From a phage, in the NCBI GenBank assembly GCA_014161675.1, contig GCA_014161675.1_4760.1: a DNA stretch of 64,000 nucleotides; one strand, 5' to 3'. This document shows positions 4,670 to 54,665 of the stretch, in pieces. Numbering within the stretch: position 1 is the first letter of the stretch; every line of letters starts with the position of its first letter. The position numbers were made by a program, and so were the translations under genes. The notes below the pieces were generated by a model, which had not been told where the DNA came from, made no database searches, and saw only the letters and a program-made list of their open reading frames with translations.

Positions 4670-4738
4670 GTTGTCCTCTCGTTGTTTTCGATGTGAGCAT
4701 TATACATTAGCTAATCATGTTGTCAACACCCCAAAACG

Positions 4739-7229: not shown

Positions 7230-8404
7230 GCACTAACTTTTTTCTTTACTGCTTTCACCTTCTGGCGAATTGCTCGAATCTCTTCGATCTCTTTTTCAGT
7301 CTCTTTAACAATTTCTTTGCGATTCTGAATATCTGTATCGAGATTATCATCAAGTTTAGGCAGCATGTCAATCAAGAACTTTTTAAAGTCTTTCAGGTTT
7401 CGAATAACAGCACCTTCGCCCATTACCGCAACACCCACACCATCCGGCAGATCACCAAACAGCTTAACCAGTTCAGACAGATGATCATGATCTTCTAGTG
7501 CTTCTTCCGGTTCAGATGGCAGTTCAACAAAGTTATAACGTTCATCATTGCTGATCAAGTGATACCAGCAAAGCCCGAAAGATTTCGGTGTATATTCTAC
7601 ACCATCAATTTCAACCGCGTCAACACTTCCATAATCATCCACTTTAGTTACCTTAAATCCTTGTCCCAGCTTTTGAACAATTTCAACAACATGACTTGAT
7701 ACAGTTTCAGCGGTAAACCAATATGGCAAATTATGCTGATTTGGTTTGTAGCGTTCACCTACTTTAAATCTCTGACCATCCGCTTGCATAGAATGAAATT
7801 GTTGTTTCGTGATTTCCGCGAAGTATTCAAATTCGCTACCGTCAAACAAGCAATTCCATTGATCACAAAAACGGTCCGCCTTAACAGTTTCACCTTTCGC
7901 GGTGATCATGGTAGCCGATCCATGAAATTCTTCTTCAACCAAAAAGCCATATTCGACAAAATCAACAAGTTTCATGGCTTCTTTGTGCTCTGGGTCATGC
8001 TCTCCCCAGAATCGCTTAAATTCTTGCAAACCTTCTGGGGTAAACGAATAACATTTACCTTTTTCAAAGTAAGTCGGCATTGCATCCTCTTTCTTGTTCA
8101 TCGCTTCGTATGCCTCTTTTGAGATACGTTTAAAGTATTTGCGCTCATTGTGCATAATCATAGTAGACCAATAATAAACGATATCCTCAGCGGAATAAAC
8201 TACATCTCCAGCTTCAATAGTAATAACATGACCGTGGTCATCTTTTTCTAATACTTTAAAGCCCTTTTCTACGATTTCAGCAACCCGAATATGACCACGG
8301 CGCGAAGCATCGGTCAGAATAATTGAATAGCGAGAAAAGTCTAGAAACTCATCTTTACCGCCTTCACGGAATGCATAGTAATGACCTTCAAAGAATTTAG
8401 CCAT
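7226..8404 (-). CDS. hypothetical protein, paralogous family, multi-domain
   Basis: 392 aa; repeated NERKYFKRISK / SEFEYFAEITK / NDERYNFVELP motifs; C-terminal coiled coil. Confidence 0.55.
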   Translation of the reverse strand: MAKFFEGHYYAFREGGKDEFLDFSRYSIILTDASRRGHIRVAEIVEKGFKVLEKDDHGHVITIEAGDVVYSAEDIVYYWSTMIMHNERKYFKRISKEAYEAMNKKEDAMPTYFEKGKCYSFTPEGLQEFKRFWGEHDPEHKEAMKLVDFVEYGFLVEEEFHGSATMITAKGETVKADRFCDQWNCLFDGSEFEYFAEITKQQFHSMQADGQRFKVGERYKPNQHNLPYWFTAETVSSHVVEIVQKLGQGFKVTKVDDYGSVDAVEIDGVEYTPKSFGLCWYHLISNDERYNFVELPSEPEEALEDHDHLSELVKLFGDLPDGVGVAVMGEGAVIRNLKDFKKFLIDMLPKLDDNLDTDIQNRKEIVKETEKEIEEIRAIRQKVKAVKKKVSA

Positions 8405-8428
8405 AATATAATCCTCTCGTTGTTTAGA

Positions 8429-8464
8429 TGGGAGTATCTTACTACTCCCGTTTCATCATGTCAA
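8429..8464 (-). promoter_or_regulatory. early promoter with GGGAGTA hairpin
   Basis: TTGACA (minus) at 8459-8464 and hairpin GGGAGTAtcttacTACTCCC. Confidence 0.45.
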
Positions 8465-8467
8465 GCG

Positions 8468-9046
8468 TTAAAGTGACTTTTTAATCTCTTTCAGTTCTTC
8501 CACTTTCTCGGCGCTGAATTTAGCGTAGGTATCATGTCGAATAATTTCACTTTCAAGAAAGGTTTCCAGTCGAGATCTATTTTCAATAAGGAACTCTTTC
8601 AGGTCTTCCGCGTTCTTGACAAAGATTTTATTGTCGGTAATGTCATCTTCAATCGCAAAGGAGATAGAGCGAACTTTACCAAACAAGTTAATCAGATCTT
8701 CCAGAGATTCTTCTTTCTTAACTGGTTTCATTTCTTCAAACTGCTTTTTAGTGATGCGTTTAAAGTATTTGCGCTCGTTTGCAGCAATCAGAACAGATGC
8801 ACCTTCATACCCATGAGTTTCTACCAGATACACACGCCCCATCGCATCAACAGTGAGAACTTTAAAGCCGTTACAAAGCACGTCATACAAGAACTTATTA
8901 TGTTGCGGACATCGTTTGATAAATTCTGCGGCTGTTTCTGCACTACGGAAAGTATAGTAACGACCTCGTTCAAAAACAGCATCATTTGAAGACTTAGCCG
9001 GATACAATTTATACGTTTTCTGTACCATAATATAATCCTCTATCAT
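8468..9046 (-). CDS. hypothetical protein, paralogous family
   Basis: NGFKVLTVDAMGRVYLVE...ANERKYFKRITKKQFEEM closely parallels 7226..8404. Confidence 0.55.
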   Translation of the reverse strand: MIEDYIMVQKTYKLYPAKSSNDAVFERGRYYTFRSAETAAEFIKRCPQHNKFLYDVLCNGFKVLTVDAMGRVYLVETHGYEGASVLIAANERKYFKRITKKQFEEMKPVKKEESLEDLINLFGKVRSISFAIEDDITDNKIFVKNAEDLKEFLIENRSRLETFLESEIIRHDTYAKFSAEKVEELKEIKKSL

Positions 9047-9876: not shown

Positions 9877-10170
9877 TTAACCATTAATCTTGTTTTTGAC
9901 TACAAAGGATCTGAACTCATCAAAACCACCTATATAATCACCATTATAGAAAATCTGCGGCATGGTGGCAATAACTTCTACCCCTGCGCGATCCTGAATG
10001 TCGGCAATGATAGAATCAATCTTTACCGGACGACCGTTTTCGTCTACACCATCATTAACCGGAATGTAGATGTAAGGGATCTTACGCGATTCACAAAGGC
10101 GCTTTGCATTCTGGCAATACTTACAGTTGTAACCTTCAAAACCAAAAATTTCTACCATGTTATACCTCAA
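9877..10170 (-). CDS. nrdC: thioredoxin/glutaredoxin NrdC
   Basis: 97 aa, CKYC active site, PQIFYNGDYIGGFDE glutaredoxin fold motif. Confidence 0.8.
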   Translation of the reverse strand: MRYNMVEIFGFEGYNCKYCQNAKRLCESRKIPYIYIPVNDGVDENGRPVKIDSIIADIQDRAGVEVIATMPQIFYNGDYIGGFDEFRSFVVKNKING

Positions 10171-10979
10171 TCTACGTTAGTTACATAAACTTCTTGCGTA
10201 TCAGAAGACTTACCACCTGAACGATCTAGGCAATAGGTCTTATTCAACAGGACGCAGTTTAAATCATTCCGCTTGATAAAGTCAAGAAGATGATCATTTA
10301 CCTTTCCCTTATGATGCGTGACATTACTGATACCAAACTGAAAACCACGCGCCATAATAGATTCTACCCACTGATAGAATTTAATCTCTTCCTCGTCACT
10401 CCAGAACTTATTATATTCCGCAGAAGTGATAAGATACGGCGGGTCCAAATAAACGAAATCACCTGGCAAGATCTCGATCTCGTCATATCGTCCAGAAGTA
10501 AAAATGATTCGACCGTCTTTGTTTTCTTCCTTAAAATTCAGGACACGCTCTACCGCGTTTTCGTTAAAAGTCCGGCGACCAAAATTAGCATTAAATTCGC
10601 CCTTCCGGTTATGGCGGTTAATGTTGCTAAAACTATGCTGAATCAACACAAACAGCGATAGCGGATCTGGATTCTCGTTATACGTCTTACGGAATGTCAT
10701 GTAAGCGTCTTTATCTTCGCGAGACAAACCATTTTCGGCAATAATCCGCTTGATCGTAGAAACCGGATCAGGACACTCGTCAATCGCTTTGTACGCGTCA
10801 ATTAAGCGGTGATCATAGTCATTAGCCAGAACATCCCCTTCGACGTACAGAGACACGCTCAAGCCGCCACAAAAGGCATCAACAAAGCGGTTATAGTGCT
10901 TAGGGAAATACTTACTAACACCAGGCAATAACTTTTCCTTATTGCCAGTATAGGGAATTAAACCTAATGCTTTCTTCAT
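10167..10979 (-). CDS. dam: DNA adenine methyltransferase (alpha class, DPPY)
   Basis: FCGGLSV motif I and DFVYLDPPYL motif IV; similar to T4 Dam from memory. Confidence 0.9.
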   Translation of the reverse strand: MKKALGLIPYTGNKEKLLPGVSKYFPKHYNRFVDAFCGGLSVSLYVEGDVLANDYDHRLIDAYKAIDECPDPVSTIKRIIAENGLSREDKDAYMTFRKTYNENPDPLSLFVLIQHSFSNINRHNRKGEFNANFGRRTFNENAVERVLNFKEENKDGRIIFTSGRYDEIEILPGDFVYLDPPYLITSAEYNKFWSDEEEIKFYQWVESIMARGFQFGISNVTHHKGKVNDHLLDFIKRNDLNCVLLNKTYCLDRSGGKSSDTQEVYVTNVD

Positions 10980-15736: not shown

Positions 15737-15837
15737 CTTTGATTCTCCTTAGTTGGTATGTGTGCATTATAGCACTATGATTTTCATTGTCAACAACTAA
15801 AAACAAAAAAGGCTACCCCGAAGGATAGCCCATAAAA

Positions 15838-43700: not shown

Positions 43701-43839
43701 ATTTGCAATGAGTCCACTGTTTGACCAGTCGGCGGTAACATTCTCTATGTTCCGTGAACTTGTAGATAAACGGTTGAAGGATAATATAGGGAATCCACGC
43801 GATCCGAAGAATCCGACACAGAGGAAAATTAATGGCTAA
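40753..43839 (+). CDS. 7: baseplate wedge protein gp7
   Basis: 1028 aa, position and size as T4 gp7. Confidence 0.8.
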   Translation: MIKAPSVTSLTIEKLSANQAYITWDDVGENFFYFVELAETRTRDGEIIPVDELSWVNLGYTADQNWFEDKNLFPEYYYKFRVAVAAEGFEQSKWVETEEFQTFKTNAYNFSMMREFNLANEFIKEKFTYDNREYVKFNTDLIQASLMKEDFVFSPEYANMTNISNYIVVDENFHEIQDHIEKVCTDINRTMLAEMNGVLYLFERFQPIVKVSNDKGQSWKAYKAFNDRVGNPVSRTCVYQSKTTTYVLGYDRIFYGRQASDTRWSADDVRFSDDTITFAKVGDENDLGFDVEVFGVFSRLTGDTTKYAEAMACSDDYLWVGAKDVIRRIRLKNTPVDTVQGSPTFGEKIFDPDVIRVTGNDKAVIQKMDVIDGKLLVFVTGEVKQRYQDPTKPENVVPSDDAGVYLIGSDGLSFQRVFGNTPQEREYIQHGFSNMSTNGDEVFISHYNHHFESILPDPETAEKYELGEAVKYSQEPTYLTDKKIHQTTFRASYDDLRIWELGPQAYYNEADYTWMRRNGVRVWITNDNRPLVVYPEVIYTQEVDTSGILDQNRVNREVYDKGTVTCYLNNVKFEGFKQYASGVMFHKNTGEIIGFYQFNYRVRDQVGVYWKPTNVAFVAELQNQVREVPWVPVHYDREQDPDLRPLLNKMTPDSFLLENENFRKFSEYYLQFLSDGSGTYYNKLKNLIKNKYPREKDAYEYLWSEMNKRNIYADKNKRDAVVRFFESRKSDFYSTKGVEASYKFLFKLLYNEDVEIEVESQAGLEYDIVVSSTNIDEDIVGRTIYTPTGRANVTYLEREYEGGRLRWRVTIHNLIGRFEEGQVIKSEKTAFEGMILVGVRGKELLSSSIDYINRSRSQYTMKIKSALPVSRYANDVMRFVHPVGFGFIGVTLLTMFINSGLSMKHTETIIQSLKNYKFDSGLPSVYPDRVADLDVDGNIKKDPLTGKALYLTSPLIGEEFPVPPEYDQENSELFHGLKASERRFAMSPLFDQSAVTFSMFRELVDKRLKDNIGNPRDPKNPTQRKING

Positions 43840-44827
43840 TGAAAATAGTGTGATCTATCGCTCAATCATTACTAGTAAATTCAGAACGGAAAAACTTCTG
43901 AATTTCTATAATTCTGTAGGCGATGAGGCAAATCAAATTACAATTTATGGAACGTTTGGACGTTCGGAGCCGTGGTCAGAAAACGAAAAAGAGGTGGGCT
44001 TTGCCCCACCTTATCCGACCGATTCAACGGCTGGTGTTGTTGACATGTGGACCCATATGATGGGGGCGGTTAAGATTAACAAATCACTTCTTGATGCGGT
44101 TATCCCTCGTAAAGATTGGGGTGATACCGGACAGGATAACCCGCGCACATTCTTTATCAATGACATTGTTGTTGTCAACTCAGCACCATATAACAGAACT
44201 GATGTTGGTAGCGGCTGGATGGTGTATCGCGTAACCGATGTTCCTGATCGCGGTTACTGCTCGATTTCAAGCATTGACGCTAAAGTAGAGTGTTTGAAGT
44301 TGGGCGGAAAGTGGACCCCCACTCATGAATCAATTGCGCCACCTGTAGGAAAGGGCGATTCTATTGATATGGGTGATGGGTATCGTTGGGAATATCTGTA
44401 CACAATTCCACCTGATGCGGCGATCAACCGTTGCACCAATGAACATATTGTTGTACCGTTCCCCGATGAACTGCGACAAGATCCGGCGCGTTGGGGTTAT
44501 GACAATGTGATCACCTGGTATAATGACTATAATCTGCTTTATCGGCTGAAAGTAGTAACTTTGCGTTTTCAGGCTTATATGGACTCTGCGCAATTCCCAA
44601 CTACCGCGTTAGTGGGTAATACTGGTTTCCGTCAGTTAAGCATTATCCTTAACCCATTGGAAAAGAAAGCACGCCCTAGCGATCCAGACGTTAAAGCGGT
44701 CAAAGATAAGTACCGACCGCAAGACTTAGAGCCACACTCAGGCGAAATGATCTACATGGAAAACCGACAACCTATCGTTCGGTCATTAGATCAAACAGAA
44801 CTTGTTTCTGTATTGTTTGAGTTCTAA
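43832..44827 (+). CDS. 8: baseplate wedge protein gp8
   Basis: 331 aa, position and size as T4 gp8. Confidence 0.8.
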   Translation: MANENSVIYRSIITSKFRTEKLLNFYNSVGDEANQITIYGTFGRSEPWSENEKEVGFAPPYPTDSTAGVVDMWTHMMGAVKINKSLLDAVIPRKDWGDTGQDNPRTFFINDIVVVNSAPYNRTDVGSGWMVYRVTDVPDRGYCSISSIDAKVECLKLGGKWTPTHESIAPPVGKGDSIDMGDGYRWEYLYTIPPDAAINRCTNEHIVVPFPDELRQDPARWGYDNVITWYNDYNLLYRLKVVTLRFQAYMDSAQFPTTALVGNTGFRQLSIILNPLEKKARPSDPDVKAVKDKYRPQDLEPHSGEMIYMENRQPIVRSLDQTELVSVLFEF

Positions 44828-44840
44828 GTGTATGATTTAA

Positions 44841-44867
44841 AAGCCAATTCGAGAGAGTTGGCTTTTT
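44841..44867 (+). terminator. rho-independent terminator after gene 8
   Basis: hairpin AAGCCAATTCGAGAGAGTTGGCTT followed by T-run. Confidence 0.6.
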
Positions 44868-44879
44868 CTATTTTGGGTG

Positions 44880-44907
44880 TTGACAATCTTGTCTGATAAG
44901 GTATAAT
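44880..44907 (+). promoter_or_regulatory. sigma70-type (early) promoter, perfect TTGACA-16-TATAAT
   Basis: TTGACA at 44880-44885, TATAAT at 44902-44907, GGAGGA RBS then ATG at 44937. Confidence 0.65.
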
Positions 44908-44936
44908 GATCACATCTAAACAACGGAGGATAAATT

Positions 44937-45194
44937 ATGGCACGTCGTAAATTTACAGATAATTGTGAAGCAATTCAGGTATCCCCTTGCGGTTGGGATG
45001 TGATCGCGAACGGTGAAAAGATCGGAGAGATCATCGATCATACTCATTCATCACTAGCCGATTACACCGATGAACTATGGGAGGGTATCAACTTCATGAA
45101 TGACACTAAACGATTCAAGACTATCGACGAAGCTATCTATTTTGTGTATAATCCAACTTTCGGTATGTGGGGTAATAGAAAATGGCACGCGTAA
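44937..45194 (+). CDS. hypothetical protein (cassette gene 1)
   Basis: 85 aa, starts MAR like the next two genes; overlaps next start. Confidence 0.5.
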   Translation: MARRKFTDNCEAIQVSPCGWDVIANGEKIGEIIDHTHSSLADYTDELWEGINFMNDTKRFKTIDEAIYFVYNPTFGMWGNRKWHA

Positions 45195-45514
45195 ATATTA
45201 AATTGCATTACACAATGAATAAAGCTAAGTTCCCAATGCAAAAGCATTACTATGGTCTACGTGCACAAGATCCTAAACTCTATGGTACTCATTGGTTTTG
45301 TAAACATGATAACCAATGGCACACATACGAAGAAATGCACGAGATGATGAAACAGGGTATTGAATTTAGTTATTCTAATTATGACCATCGTATAACTTGC
45401 ATTCGAAAATTGAAACGATGGATTCGTAAGAATCCGCAATTTAAAAACTTTGTGTTCTTTATGTCTCATGTTTATTTGGGGCATAGCGTTACCGTCACAG
45501 CAAAGGTTAAATAA
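45182..45514 (+). CDS. hypothetical protein (cassette gene 2)
   Basis: 110 aa, His/Cys-rich, starts MAR. Confidence 0.5.
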   Translation: MARVNIKLHYTMNKAKFPMQKHYYGLRAQDPKLYGTHWFCKHDNQWHTYEEMHEMMKQGIEFSYSNYDHRITCIRKLKRWIRKNPQFKNFVFFMSHVYLGHSVTVTAKVK

Positions 45515-46353
45515 TGGCACGACTTTCTAAACAAGAACAAAAATTACACGATCGGGTGATGGAGTTGATTAATTCAGATCGCCCATTGACATATGAAGAA
45601 AAAGAATTTTGCTATAATAACTATCATGGCGATGGTCTAGGCGGTTCAGGTGCATTCTTTACCCCAGAAGGGCTTGCATGGGATTTTACCATCGATGCAC
45701 ATTGCACAGGAAAAGTATTAGATCTTTGTGCTGGGATCGGTCGCTTATCTTTTTGTATGTTACATCGTTGTAAGCCAGAAAAGATCGTATGCGTCGAACT
45801 CAATCCAGAATTTGCGCGGATTGGCAAGAGACTATTACCGGAGGCAGAATGGATCACCAGCGATGTATTCGAATTTGAGTCAAACGAAAAATTCGATGTG
45901 GTGATCAGCAATCCACCTTTCGGGAAAATCAATACAACCGACACAAAGGATGTATTTGAGTACACTGGCGGTGAGTTTGAATTTAAGGTTATGACATTAG
46001 GCCAGAAGTTTGCCGATGTAGGTTATTTTATTGTTCCTTCTGGTTCCGCTGGTTTTGCTTATTCCGGCAGACCTTATTATGACGGGACCATGAAGTCTAA
46101 TAAATATCTAAAATGGAGCAAACAAACTGGTTTGGTGACTTATGCCGGATGTGGGATCGATACATCAATCTATCGCGATGAATGGCATAGTACAAACGTT
46201 TTAACAGAAGTGGTTGAGGTTCGGTATTACGAGAAAGAAGCCGTAGAAGCGCCTAAAACACGTCCTAACGAACAAATAGAAGAAAGTAAGGAGATTACCT
46301 TACCGAAACAGGAAAGCGAGTCTGGGACGCTCTCAGATTTGTTTGACATTTAA
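45514..46353 (+). CDS. gamma-class amino-methyltransferase (N6-adenine/N4-cytosine DNA MTase or related small-MTase family)
   Basis: motif X AFFTPEG, motif I VLDLCAGIGRLS, motif IV VISNPPFG in gamma order. Confidence 0.7.
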   Translation: MARLSKQEQKLHDRVMELINSDRPLTYEEKEFCYNNYHGDGLGGSGAFFTPEGLAWDFTIDAHCTGKVLDLCAGIGRLSFCMLHRCKPEKIVCVELNPEFARIGKRLLPEAEWITSDVFEFESNEKFDVVISNPPFGKINTTDTKDVFEYTGGEFEFKVMTLGQKFADVGYFIVPSGSAGFAYSGRPYYDGTMKSNKYLKWSKQTGLVTYAGCGIDTSIYRDEWHSTNVLTEVVEVRYYEKEAVEAPKTRPNEQIEESKEITLPKQESESGTLSDLFDI

Positions 46354-46357
46354 TTAT

Positions 46358-46384
46358 AAGCCGTCCTTGTGGGCGGCTTTTTTG
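46358..46384 (+). terminator. rho-independent terminator after methyltransferase
   Basis: hairpin GCCGTCCTTGTGGGCGGC followed by TTTTTTGT. Confidence 0.55.
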
Positions 46385-46393
46385 TATGTATTT

Positions 46394-46401
46394 TATAAAT
46401 A
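46394..46401 (+). promoter_or_regulatory. T4-type late promoter TATAAATA for gene 9
   Basis: exact TATAAATA 28 nt upstream of gene 9 ATG. Confidence 0.6.
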
Positions 46402-46428: not shown

Positions 46429-47283
46429 ATGGCACAAGTTCCAAAGAAAAGAATAGACACAGGTACTGTCGGCAATCCATCGACTGGCGATATCTTATAT
46501 GATGGCGGTAATAAAATTAACGATAACTTTGATTCAATATATGACGCATTTGCTGATCAGAGGTTTAAAGACGTAGACCACGGCGTGGGAAGAATGGTTA
46601 TTCATGCAACCGGATACTATCAGAAGCATCCACGTCAAAGCTACGCGGGTTCCGCTGTTGAGATTGGGAGTCTACACGATATCGATACAACTCAAGGCGC
46701 ACTTATTGCTATTCTACCTAAAGCAAAGGTCGGCGAGGGTGTTGTATTCATAAATAGTAACGGTAGCCTTTCAACGACGACACCTCTCAATATTCGAACT
46801 CAAGCAGGTGATTCTATTAGCGGTTATTCCGGTGATGCTACAATAACACAACCATTTTCAAAAGTCACTGTTTGGTGTACTGCCGTTGAAGGTAGTCGCG
46901 TAACATGGCGATTGGGTATCGAAAGTATGTTTACCGATACAACAACGCCATTAGATAAAACAGTTAACGTAACTGGAGTAGCAACAAACGTTGCTATTGC
47001 CGCAAAAACAGAATACGTTTCCATCAAATTATTAACTACCGCTAGCAATACATCCGGTTCAAAAATGCGTTCAAGTGAAACGCTACTGATGATTGATTCT
47101 AAAGCCGGAAAAGTTTATGCGACGGAATATGCAGTTTTGCAGAAGACAGAAGATGAACTATACACGGTTCGTTATTTCATCGGTTCCGGCGATAAAGTAT
47201 ATGCAGAGTATAAGGCTACTGGCGAAAATATTCGTTTAGCAGTTAAAGCCGTAGACACTATTAAAATCGGGGTTGCTACATGA
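46429..47283 (+). CDS. 9: baseplate wedge / long-tail-fibre socket gp9
   Basis: 284 aa, position and size as T4 gp9. Confidence 0.8.
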   Translation: MAQVPKKRIDTGTVGNPSTGDILYDGGNKINDNFDSIYDAFADQRFKDVDHGVGRMVIHATGYYQKHPRQSYAGSAVEIGSLHDIDTTQGALIAILPKAKVGEGVVFINSNGSLSTTTPLNIRTQAGDSISGYSGDATITQPFSKVTVWCTAVEGSRVTWRLGIESMFTDTTTPLDKTVNVTGVATNVAIAAKTEYVSIKLLTTASNTSGSKMRSSETLLMIDSKAGKVYATEYAVLQKTEDELYTVRYFIGSGDKVYAEYKATGENIRLAVKAVDTIKIGVAT

Positions 47284-53924: not shown

Positions 53925-54665
53925 ATGTTTAACAACACTCTTTTTGCTCGCCTTGAATCGCAAAAGGATTATGAGAATACACGACAAACAGAGATTCTTA
54001 ATCCTTATGTGAACTTTCACAAATATACAAATACTCAGACGTTAGCCGACGTTATGGTCGCCGAAGCTATTCAGATGCGAGGTGTAGAATTATATTACAT
54101 CCCTCGTGAATTTGTCAAACCAGATATGATCTTTGGTGAGGATGTTCAAAGCAAATTTACTAAAGCATGGAAATTTGCGGCGTATATTAACTCATTTGAT
54201 GGGTATGAAGGAGCGGGTAATTTCTTCTCTAGTTTCGGGTATCAAGCTAATGATGAATTAACTTTTACGGTTAACCCCAACCTATTCAAACATCAAGTAG
54301 ATGATCAAGAGCCAAAATCAGGTGACTTAATTTATATTCCGATGAGTAATGATTTATTTGAAATTAATTACGTTGAGCCATATCAGCCGTTTTTTCAGGC
54401 TGGCAAAAATGCCATGCGTAAAATTATTGCAGAGAAATTCGTGTATAGCGGTGAGGAATTGCGACCAGAATTACAACGCAATGAGGGAATTAATGTTGAT
54501 GAGTTTGCGGATCTGGATCTTGCACCGATCACTAATCTGGACGGGTTAACAGATATCAACCTAGATCAGTACAAAGAAGATAAGCAATTCAGAAGCGAAG
54601 GACAAGATTTTATTGATCCGTTTGATCCTATTAATGGCAAGGGTTCACCTTTCGCCGATTTTTGA
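53925..54665 (+). CDS. 14: neck protein gp14
   Basis: 246 aa. Confidence 0.8.

Follow-up and report, generated by a model that had tools for sequence, protein, structure and literature searches.

We analysed a 64,000-nucleotide stretch of phage DNA (NCBI GenBank assembly GCA_014161675.1, contig GCA_014161675.1_4760.1; hereafter the window), which nucleotide matches assign to a Krischvirus, a coliphage of the RB49/Phi1 type, and in particular the accessory cassette that lies between its baseplate genes 8 and 9 and carries a gene for a 279-residue methyltransferase. The reading that we favour, and hold to be somewhat probable, is that a cassette driven by a PeSL element (a terminator hairpin combined with an early promoter of the sigma-70 consensus type, in front of an accessory open reading frame, ORF; Arbiol et al. 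2010, PMC2839356) was fixed in the Krischvirus baseplate block, and that its cargo is an orphan N6-adenine DNA methyltransferase tethered to the phage replisome's sliding clamp, gp45. The cassette, the gene and the PeSL are already known. What is new is the clamp-like peptide at the C-terminus of the methyltransferase, and this is the most informative feature of the cassette.

A polymerase-like peptide at the methyltransferase C-terminus

The methyltransferase of the window ends in LPKQESESGTLSDLFDI (ESGTLSDLFDI), and the DNA polymerase of Phi1, gp43, ends in YEKVASLTDLFDI (KVASLTDLFDI). The last eight residues, TLSDLFDI (46327-46350, plus strand), are identical to the gp43 end, SLTDLFDI, at six of eight positions, and by this comparison the peptide nearly reproduces the epitope at the polymerase C-terminus that binds the clamp, and is a candidate gp45-binding motif. 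A six-frame scan of the whole Phi1 genome, in which the last eight residues of all 951 ORFs of at least 40 amino acids were compared with those of gp43, returned a 6/8 match for the methyltransferase only, the next best being 3/8. The Phi1 proteins gp55 and gp33 end in LPSLDQFYEIEN (SLDQFYEIEN) and NTLDI, respectively, and at the homologous positions of T4 gp43 ends in EEKASLDFLFG and gp55 in SPSLDFLYEAND. According to a review of these proteins, the C-termini of gp43, gp55 and gp33 are established and interchangeable gp45-binding epitopes, and the epitope of gp55 is joined to the body of the protein by a divergent linker of variable length (PMC2988020).

Both features are found in the methyltransferase, which has a tail resembling those of gp43, gp55 and gp33 of the same phage and, before it, a variable and flexible linker. 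This acidic/polar linker (residues 240-271; 46231-46326, plus strand) is predicted to be disordered, with pLDDT values below 50 for residues 244-279 in the AlphaFold2 model, and 13 of its 32 positions vary. Among 18 distinct Krischvirus sequences, variable positions make up 12.6% of the core and 40.6% of the linker, and none of the eight positions of the tail (0/8). At the DNA level, the similarity between the end of gene 43 and the end of the methyltransferase gene is confined to the motif (21 of 27 nucleotides) and the flanks are unrelated, so the tail is not a recent copy of a longer segment, and an origin by recent duplication of the gene 43 3' end is unsupported. The methyltransferases of divergent relatives end in TKTLDFVDFSEI, GDGSLSMFDI and SGTLTDLFDI.

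The DprA-like ORF164 of Phi1 (L009:48177-48764, minus strand) ends in GGSDLSWLDI, a hydrophobic/acidic C-terminus with an LDI end like those of gp33 (NTLDI) and gp43 (LFDI), and by this likeness it could be another gp45 client.

Tails across the methyltransferase family

A profile search of 1.84 billion cluster representatives recovered 1078 members of the methyltransferase family (phrog_3820; E ≤ 1e-3, clusters at 50% identity), and relatives are encoded by 186 stretches in IMG/VR, from which 80 loci were taken for an analysis of the C-termini. These fall into three groups. The first comprises 12 loci from T4-type phages, which could be compared with the clamp-binding tails of the same genomes. 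It includes the Krischvirus tail TLSDLFDI, paired with the gp43 end SLTDLFDI as read in Phi1. The RB43/RB16-like tail AQNLFTFTIE, which is also hydrophobic, is found together with a gp43 ending in ASLNTLFGDDW, a gp33 ending in TLDDFM and a gp55 ending in TLEMFL; the tail KSDLFTFTIE of two loci (L046 and L047) that we take to be KP15-like is found with a gp43 ending in ASLNDLFGDW; and the tail SSATFDFRIE of a further locus (L037) with a gp43 ending in ASLSDLFDF.

The second group comprises 31 of the 80 loci, on contigs of about 12-67 kb, in which the protein ends in Q.[SD][LI]F after a Pro/Ala-rich linker, with variants such as QLSLFDAA, QLDLFGMAA, QADLFGVAA, QASLFGDAA and QLDIFEQIA; five more loci come close to the pattern. 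C-terminal QL(S/D)LF is a documented binding motif for the bacterial beta-clamp (PMC9690074; PMC4549789). The pattern Q..[LMIF]F lies within the last 12 residues in 31 of 145 near-full-length representatives of the family (50% identity) and in 4 of 1107 phage ORFs that served as controls, an odds ratio of 75 (Fisher p = 1.6e-26), and the strict form QL[SDTGAE]LF is present in 12 of the 145 and in none of the 1107 controls. The window methyltransferase itself has no Q-type beta motif, and no tail of the PIP-box type, which binds the clamp PCNA, was found among 149 family representatives. The third group is tail-less and comprises enterobacterial prophage-type contigs and chromosomal copies, with proteins of 236-247 residues.

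Several homologues lie among genes of DNA replication and modification. The RB43 homologue is within the replisome cluster, between genes 61.1 and 41. Of those with a beta motif, one follows immediately after DnaB (L069), one adjoins RecT (L054), one is located between an MT-A70 and a C5-cytosine DNA methyltransferase and is flanked by a superfamily 2 helicase and a primase-polymerase (L062), one is directly upstream of a C5-cytosine DNA methyltransferase (L081), and one is found on a plasmid-like element together with ParA, ParB and a relaxase.

A tree of the methyltransferase core groups the Krischvirus clade (95% bootstrap) with the tail-less enterobacterial copies as its sisters (83%), apart from the clades of the RB43-like (91%) and the beta-motif (100%) homologues. 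This arrangement suggests that the tails were gained or remodelled independently. The simplest reading of these C-termini is that the tail would be a clamp-binding peptide fitted to whichever clamp replicates the element, and if so, the substrate of the enzyme would be DNA. We see about equal grounds for accepting and for doubting a more general form of this proposal, by which phrog_3820-type proteins would form a widespread mobile-element family of orphan adenine DNA methyltransferases, coupled to replication by a swappable C-terminal clamp-binding peptide, QLxLF for the host beta-clamp on temperate-phage contigs and on a plasmid-like element, and polymerase-like tails for gp45 in phages of the T4 type.

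Some further features of the homologous loci were noted. On the two temperate-type contigs with a downstream C5-cytosine methyltransferase (L062:9456-14098 and L081:9429-12583), one small ORF lies between this gene and the clamp-motif methyltransferase; the upstream neighbour is a confirmed MT-A70 protein (DPPW) in the first, and an ORF with a DPPW N-terminus in the second. In four Citrobacter freundii chromosomes (L002-L005) a tail-less homologue of 54% identity (gene at 8001-8717) is found beside yliH, where it borders an island of small genes that lack annotation, with an HNH protein and fragments of transposases. On the prophage contigs from IMG/VR, the methyltransferase homologue is the last gene.

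The catalytic core and its class

The methyltransferase gene (45514-46353, plus strand; ORF143 of Phi1, RB49ORF143w of RB49) encodes a class I S-adenosylmethionine (SAM)-dependent enzyme with an N6-amino-methyltransferase core of the gamma order in residues 1-239. Motif X (AFFTPEG, 45652-45672, plus strand; GAFFTPEG at residues 46-53) is followed by motif I, the SAM-binding loop (VLDLCAGIGRLS, residues 68-79; 45715-45750, plus strand), with LDLCAGIG at residues 69-76, and by motif IV, the catalytic tetrapeptide NPPF (residues 133-136; 45910-45921, plus strand). This linear order, X-I-IV, together with a motif IV of the (D/N/S)PP(Y/F/W) type, is that of the gamma class. In an alignment of 20 homologues (A1), F48, F49, T50 and P51 of motif X, C72, A73, G74, I75 and G76 of motif I, and N133, P134, P135 and F136 of motif IV with the adjacent G137 are invariant, as is the acidic E95, which we read as motif II.

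Matches above the gathering scores were obtained in Pfam for MTS (1e-9; 38.5 bits against 23), Methyltransf_25 (8e-8) and Eco57I (1.4e-6; 29.0 bits against 25.3), the MTS match spanning only the generic SAM-binding half of the protein, and in PHROGs for phrog_3820, 'DNA methyltransferase' (1e-117). The AlphaFold2 model is confident for residues 1-243 (mean pLDDT 81), which adopt the class I Rossmann-like fold of SAM methyltransferases. The N-terminal helices, together with motif X (FFTP), can be aligned over more than 209 residues with DNA enzymes of the HsdM type and with MmeI. The predicted fold alone cannot separate DNA from RNA enzymes.

In Krischvirus GenBank records the gene is labelled 'release factor glutamine methyltransferase/prmC', 'DNA methyltransferase', 'putative methyltransferase' or 'hypothetical protein'. 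An assignment to PrmC/HemK was ruled out, with 37.5 bits against a cut-off of 199.1 for TIGR03534 and only residues 64-137 matching, and the PrmC label in several records is unsupported by such profile comparisons; an assignment to RsmC, the MTS match notwithstanding, appears improbable (29.2 bits against 295 for the NCBIfam equivalog). The homologue in phages Miro and Matisse is labelled 'radical SAM protein', but the Pfam matches of the window protein are to SAM-dependent methyltransferase domains only and to no radical SAM family. Membership of the alpha class (Dam/D12) was excluded by the lack of any PF02086 match. The true Dam of the window, with DPPY, is encoded at 10167-10979 on the minus strand; its Phi1 homologue scores 108 bits to PF02086, and this Dam ends in VYVTNVD, without a clamp-like tail.

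A sequence-only reading of the window had already described motifs X, I and IV in gamma order and an enzyme distinct from the DPPY Dam, and the invariance of the key residues in the 20 homologues, the NPPF tetrapeptide and the missing PF02086 match bear out both statements. It had also proposed structure and homology prediction for all three ORFs of the cassette; our analysis gave a gamma-order core for the methyltransferase and no function for the two small ORFs. As evidence that would tell against its view it had named conservation of the interval in relatives combined with a housekeeping RNA or protein methyltransferase profile: the interval is indeed conserved, but the protein fails such profiles.

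Location of the cassette in the baseplate block

The cassette is bordered on the left by gene 8 (43832-44827, plus strand), which encodes the baseplate wedge subunit gp8 and is annotated as gene 8 in Phi1, and on the right by gene 9 (46429-47283, plus strand), which encodes the baseplate wedge/tail-fibre connector gp9. The interval of 1601 nucleotides between them contains, in this order, a terminator, a TTGACA-16-TATAAT promoter, two small ORFans, the methyltransferase gene, a second terminator and the octamer TATAAATA before gene 9. The spacing between genes 8 and 9 is 63 nucleotides in T4 and 9-11 nucleotides in Aeromonas phage Aes012 (Tulanevirus), Citrobacter phage Citrof4 (Pseudotevenvirus) and Klebsiella phage Roth88, and the insertion is thus lineage-specific. 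A query of 2.1 kb spanning the insert matched 59 coliphage records, among them Krischvirus RB49, Phi1, JSE, kaaroe and ECD7, with identities of 97.5-99.3% in the best 30 of the 59 and of at least 90% in all; the insert is kept in 58 of these 59 Krischvirus-type records (at least 80% of the query covered). In Phi1, the three genes are annotated between genes 8 and 9 as ORF140, ORF142 and ORF143 ('DNA methyltransferase'), and RB49ORF143w was listed by Nolan et al. (2006) as a match to 'Methyltransferase small domain' (PMC1524935).

More divergent metagenomic relatives, in which gp8 is 81-89% and gp9 56-77% identical to the window counterparts, show the same layout of gene 8, hairpin, sigma-70-type promoter, methyltransferase, hairpin, TATAAATA and gene 9. 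No small ORF precedes the methyltransferase in three of them (L099-L101) and a single unrelated one of 154 residues does so in a fourth (L102), as compared with two in the window. The methyltransferase is thus the constant cargo, and the small ORFs vary among relatives. A conserved three-gene module was ruled out, as both small ORFs are absent or replaced in L099 and L102 and neither is found beside the RB43 methyltransferase.

The PeSL element and the terminators

The upstream intrinsic terminator (hairpin 44839-44866 with a T-run to 44871, plus strand) has a 12-bp stem and a GAGA loop, with a predicted RNA fold of -15.6 kcal/mol (z = -3.7; 0 of 200 shuffles fold as well); it probably ends the late transcript of genes 6-7-8 and would represent the stem-loop part of a PeSL. 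The promoter part (44880-44907, plus strand) matches the sigma-70 consensus at 12 of 12 positions, with TTGACA at 44880 and TATAAT at 44907 separated by 16 nucleotides, and is followed by a Shine-Dalgarno sequence, GGAGG (44925-44929, plus strand), for the first small ORF. The cassette is closed by a second intrinsic terminator (hairpin 46358-46379 with a T-run to 46385, plus strand; -15.9 kcal/mol, z = -4.3), which is conserved in L099 and L102. The octamer TATAAATA (46394-46401, plus strand), 28 nucleotides before gene 9, is a putative late promoter from which transcription of this gene would restart. An identical octamer follows the terminator at the same place in L099 and L102, and the late-promoter call rests on its position and on this positional conservation, the octamer not being enriched in the window.

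The sequence-only reading had set genes 8 and 9 about 1.6 kb apart, in contrast to their adjacency in T4, and had read in the interval a terminator, a perfect TTGACA-16-TATAAT promoter, three coupled ORFs that all start with Met-Ala-Arg, and a second terminator, all of which agrees with the measurements given here. The comparison of the gene 8-9 junction that it called for places the insert in nearly all Krischvirus-type records and finds near-adjacent genes in T4, Aes012, Citrof4 and Roth88. The octamer that it took for a canonical late promoter of gene 9 is likewise present; it is not enriched, and its call as a putative promoter rests on position.

In the window there are six perfect TTGACA-N15-18-TATAAT sites against 0.12 expected, and of these only the site in the gene 8-9 interval is on the plus strand, to which the late virion genes also belong. 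Two of the minus-strand sites, at 4699 and 15766, share with the copy at 44880 the frame hairpin-TTTTT-..GG(G)TG-TTGACAA ... TATAATg.(t)cacat...aac.a..gag; that is, the whole succession of hairpin, T-run, GGGTG, TTGACAA...TATAAT and cacatc...aacaacgagagga. The unit thus combines a stem-loop terminator and a near-consensus sigma-70 promoter, is intergenic, stands directly before an accessory ORF and is related in sequence to other copies in the same genome; judged by these features, it is in all likelihood the PeSL element already described. In the PeSL cassettes published for RB49 and Phi1 (Arbiol et al. 2010, PMC2839356; Comeau et al. 2014, PMC4122927), a terminator and a near-perfect sigma-70 promoter are likewise followed by a Shine-Dalgarno sequence and the start codon region of an accessory ORF. 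The copy between genes 8 and 9 has extended sequence in common with two other copies in the window; it differs in being on the late strand and within the baseplate block. About 50 PeSL motifs are present in each of Phi1 and RB49, promoter and terminator activity was shown in vivo for other copies (PeSL206/205 and PeSL211/210), and a few PeSLs were reported to lie inside virion modules, beside genes of unknown function (PMC2839356). The main text of the two PeSL papers (PMC2839356, PMC4122927) does not mention ORF140, ORF142, ORF143, a methyltransferase or the baseplate.

The five other perfect consensus promoters of the window are all on the minus strand (4699-4726, 15766-15793, 7202, 12572 and 54089); that at 54089-54118 is located within the late-gene block.

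Proposed function and alternative explanations

In the mechanism that we propose, host sigma-70 RNA polymerase would fire the TTGACA-16-TATAAT promoter right after infection, as its consensus sequence and the tested PeSLs suggest, while the flanking terminators would insulate the cassette from the late transcription of genes 6-8 and gene 9 would restart from its own TATAAATA late promoter. The product is an enzyme with an intact gamma-order core, as judged from its motifs (FFTP, LCAGIG and NPPF) and predicted fold, followed by a disordered and fast-evolving linker that ends in the invariant, polymerase-like TLSDLFDI. Through this peptide the enzyme would attach to gp45 clamps on phage DNA that is being replicated, and nascent DNA would be methylated as it is made. 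The likely benefit would be the shielding of phage DNA with unmodified cytosines from host restriction. We infer the early timing, the methylation of DNA at adenine N6, the binding to gp45 and the anti-restriction benefit from sequence, and DNA modification with an anti-restriction role, which the sequence-only reading had tentatively put forward, is the best-supported function for the cassette.

Several observations weigh against this proposal. No separate target-recognition domain or HsdS-like neighbour was seen, residues 1-243 aligning almost wholly with catalytic domains. The TATAAATA octamer shows no enrichment in the window (5 found, 6.2 expected). The RB43-like tails (LFTFTIE) match those of their own gp43, gp33 and gp55 only in a loose [S/T/N]-L-x-x-F pattern, tail-less lineages exist in enterobacterial prophages, in Aeromonas phage AS-zj and in Cronobacter phage GAP32, and the core tree was made simply, by neighbour joining, and rooted at its midpoint. 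Finally, DNA of Krischvirus TB34, whose copy of the methyltransferase is 97.8% identical to that of the window, contained no modified nucleosides detectable by high-performance liquid chromatography/mass spectrometry (PMC13390438), in a paper that does not mention N6-methyldeoxyadenosine. This makes dense, non-specific methylation unlikely and is still compatible with a sparse, site-specific mark.

Part of this evidence would be explained if the protein were a free-acting orphan DNA methyltransferase serving anti-restriction, its tail likeness being incidental or meant for some partner that is not the clamp. The relatives nearest to it in sequence, the enterobacterial prophage and chromosomal copies with 54-61% identity, work without a tail, the RB43-type tails resemble the polymerase tails of their own phages only loosely, and short hydrophobic/acidic C-termini can arise by chance. 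We nevertheless regard this explanation as unlikely, given that the 6/8 identity to gp43 at the extreme C-terminus is unique among the 951 Phi1 ORFs, that among Krischvirus sequences the linker varies and the tail does not, and that the motif of the other clamp, QLxLF, is about 75-fold enriched on homologues whose replication relies on the host clamp.

That the enzyme has an RNA or protein substrate and acts on the translation apparatus of the host early in infection, either as an rRNA enzyme like RsmC or METTL5 or as a glutamine enzyme like PrmC/HemK, appears improbable. All NCBIfam matches are far under the cut-offs (37.5 against 199 bits for PrmC, 29 against 295 for RsmC), the FFTP motif X and the N-terminal helices align with HsdM-type and MmeI DNA enzymes, the homologues are found among replication genes and DNA methyltransferases and carry clamp-binding motifs, and a clamp tether would make no sense for an RNA or protein substrate.

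It is very improbable that the protein acts mainly through its tail, as an early-expressed competitor for gp45 sites, tuning polymerase processivity or delaying gp45-dependent late transcription, with catalysis secondary: all catalytic motifs are invariant across the family, tail-less homologues are maintained, and beta-motif homologues occur in temperate-phage contigs and on a plasmid-like element, in which late-transcription control of the gp45 type is not known to operate. Such a role would fit with the copying of a polymerase epitope, with the position of the gene behind an early promoter, and with the fact that gp45 is also an activator of late transcription through the interchangeable tails of gp33 and gp55 (PMC2988020).

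Relation to known clamp clients and methyltransferases

The tethered methyltransferase that we propose shares with gp43, gp55 and gp33 of the T4 family a linker that is variable and flexible and leads to a short hydrophobic/acidic peptide at the very C-terminus (PMC2988020). It differs in the carrier, which is here a methyltransferase, and in that clamp binding is here predicted from sequence. As ligands of gp45 the same review names the clamp loader and three C-termini, those of gp43, gp55 and gp33, with no methyltransferase among them (PMC2988020). The beta-clamp motif QL(S/D)LF, which is also used by insertion sequence transposases (PMC4549789), is shared by family members ending in QLSLF, QLDLF or QADLF followed by 0-4 residues, whereas the window methyltransferase carries the phage-clamp version. 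A functional parallel is with the eukaryotic DNMT1, likewise a DNA methyltransferase recruited to newly replicated DNA via a clamp-binding motif, in this case for PCNA (PMC9690074). The two are not homologous: DNMT1, a maintenance enzyme for C5-cytosine, has its PIP box at the N-terminus, whereas the phage enzyme is of the N6-adenine type with a C-terminal motif of the gp45 or beta type. The T4 Dam, in turn, is likewise a phage-encoded N6-adenine DNA methyltransferase that is independent of restriction-modification systems and has a presumed anti-restriction role, but it belongs to the D12 class with DPPY, in contrast to the gamma order, the NPPF tetrapeptide and the missing PF02086 match of the enzyme described here.

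No description of a clamp-bound phage or bacterial methyltransferase, including one that is a client of the beta-clamp, was found in the full-text literature, the coverage of which is incomplete, so that an earlier description is possible. The only methyltransferase named in a review of sliding clamps is the PCNA partner DNMT1 (PMC9690074), and in a study of the DNA-modification genes of KP15 and KP27 the methyltransferases reported are Dcm and Dam methylases and no others. The combination of an orphan phage methyltransferase with a clamp-binding short linear motif would, if real, be, as far as could be found, the first viral or bacterial counterpart of DNMT1-PCNA, and would add a new class of client to both the gp45 and the beta-clamp 'toolbelts'. 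Phages with unmodified cytosines, of which RB49 is an example, produce hundreds of genome copies in a matter of minutes and have to protect them, and how a diffusing methyltransferase keeps pace with replication is a practical question to which a clamp tether would be a simple answer. If the proposal is right, methylation of nascent DNA faster than host restriction enzymes cut it may be a general strategy, and the family would illustrate the exchange of a short linear motif as a gene passes from one element to another with a different replisome. Krischvirus phages are used therapeutically, and the enzyme would thus also have a bearing on host range in phage therapy.

The two small ORFs of the cassette

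The methyltransferase gene is preceded by two ORFans, ORF-A (85 residues, 44937-45194, plus strand; Phi1 ORF140) and ORF-B (110 residues, 45182-45514, plus strand; Phi1 ORF142), which belong to phrog_16603 and phrog_12630, respectively. Neither has a Pfam match, neither PHROG family has a known function, and a search of 5.8 billion proteins gave only near-identical phage sequences and no distant homologues of either. ORF-A is found in Krischvirus and, at 60-80% identity, in three further records, of which one listed is Escherichia phage HMD-6; it is absent from the relatives L099 and L102. ORF-B is present within Krischvirus as two alleles, of about 99% and about 72% identity to the window copy, the latter in Sf20, GEC-3S, FL04 and Makalu_001, genomes that are otherwise 96-99% identical, and it has homologues of 58-60% identity in coliphages of the FV3/PDX type with genomes of about 135-145 kb. 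This allele pattern points to a gene-sized replacement inside the cassette. The AlphaFold2 model of ORF-B has low confidence (pLDDT 62) and is too poor for a fold search. By their distribution, ORF-A and ORF-B seem to be exchangeable ORFans of the sort said to be shuffled by PeSLs, and the two would share the cassette promoter.

The three ORFs (85, 110 and 279 residues) overlap, ORF-A and ORF-B by 13 nucleotides and ORF-B and the methyltransferase gene by one. All three open with the same eight nucleotides, ATGGCACG (Met-Ala-Arg), at 44937, 45182 and 45514 on the plus strand. This octamer occurs five times in the window against 1.6 expected, and three of the five occurrences are these starts, within 580 nucleotides; the start of the methyltransferase is MA[KR] throughout the family. 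The start shared with the ORFans could be a recombination scar of module insertion or reflect a preference in translation initiation.

Other DNA-modification genes in Krischvirus

The Krischvirus phages SAP and TB34 are 99.96% identical, and the DNA of SAP is reported to be fully cytosine-modified and that of TB34 unmodified; no genes of a known pathway account for the modification in SAP, which its authors left unexplained (PMC13390438). Outside the window, Phi1 has a third gene annotated as 'DNA methyltransferase', ORF189 (L008:17297-18013, minus strand), which encodes a protein of 238 residues with no Pfam match. Its motifs F-x-G-x-G, FPPC and ENP resemble those of a miniature C5-cytosine methyltransferase, and by this resemblance it may bear on the cytosine modifications of SAP.

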